From: Anaerolineales bacterium
Lineage (GTDB): Bacteria; Chloroflexota; Anaerolineae; Anaerolineales; E44-bin32
Length of the DNA stretch: 64,000 nt
NCBI GenBank assembly: GCA_036397095.1
Contig: DASWJQ010000039.1
Span: 1,422 to 65,421 of the forward strand
Direction of reading: 5' to 3'
Continued below: a report on this DNA, generated by a model with database tools. The DNA itself is not shown here.

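Follow-up and report, generated by a model that had tools for sequence, protein, structure and literature searches.

A GC-rich perfect hairpin of 16-17 bp (44290-44324; -49 kcal/mol, z = -4.96) lies directly 3' of the solute-binding protein gene (43131-44264) of the GntR-headed cluster. The relatives with short-type clusters, which are devoid of the SDR, the DapA and first MDR genes and the distal block, carry a different but conserved hairpin at the equivalent place after this gene. The excess of binding protein over the remaining transporter subunits is probably set by the hairpin at 44290-44324. Another hairpin, terminator-like and made of a 14-bp stem followed by UUUU, separates the second D-2-hydroxyacid dehydrogenase gene from the glycerate 2-kinase gene in L001, a contig 99.95% identical to the window over 11.3 kb that runs past base 64000. 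It is found at 11926-12030, i.e., about 64580-64684 in window numbering and outside the window. The glycerate 2-kinase, MoeA-like and cyclophilin-like genes may form a separate transcription unit. The half-site word ATGTAACAT of the 34-bp inverted-repeat operator (40410-40443), the presumed GntR site, occurs again in the short-type cluster L022 (6381-6389). Its location there, in the gap 5' of the IolE-like TIM-barrel genes, implies that L022 has a second, putative GntR-controlled promoter.

Elsewhere, the window contains the following features:
435-1682, + strand, UPF0236 transposase-like ORF, close to the window start
6718-8202, + strand, ECF sigma factor with a DUF6596 domain at the C-terminal end
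23009-27406, - strand, 1465-aa protein with an Exo_endo_phos domain and two lamin-tail domains
29179-32292, - strand, single ORF of 1037 aa with serine hydroxymethyltransferase (PF00464) and glycine-cleavage T-protein (PF01571) domains
In the last of these, two enzymes of folate one-carbon metabolism are fused, which is unusual. Genes for trypsin-like and InhA-like secreted proteases adjoin the lamin-tail gene, and together they look like an extracellular degradative set.

Homologues of the divergent AP_endonuc_2 TIM barrel (62655-63572) are present in other Chloroflexota (66-67% identity). There, the next genes are a transketolase-like gene (680-790 aa) and XdhC in place of the second D-2-hydroxyacid dehydrogenase and the glycerate kinase. 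This arrangement (L097 10963-13326, L098 11274-13307) suggests that these sister clusters use an alternative C-C cleavage step. A UlaG-like gene has other neighbours in L085 (1-20317): a RuBisCO-like protein (RLP), two UPF0261 proteins, a DeoC/LacD aldolase, a URO-D-like protein and a 3-hydroxyacyl-CoA-DH-like protein. Comparable neighbourhoods occur in L080, L081, L083 and L088; a split Mo hydroxylase is present in that of L085 and partly visible in that of L081. The L085-type neighbourhood resembles RLP-containing acid-sugar pathways, and its UPF0261 proteins are possible candidates for a kinase.

The clusters of four further loci (L014, L072, L076 and L079) have in common UlaG-like, IlvD/Edd, HIBADH, DUF6282 and LarA-like genes. 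L014 encodes a split Mo hydroxylase, whereas the three others encode a tungsten-type AFOR. Clusters of this type represent an uncharacterised anaerobic acid-sugar pathway in their own right.
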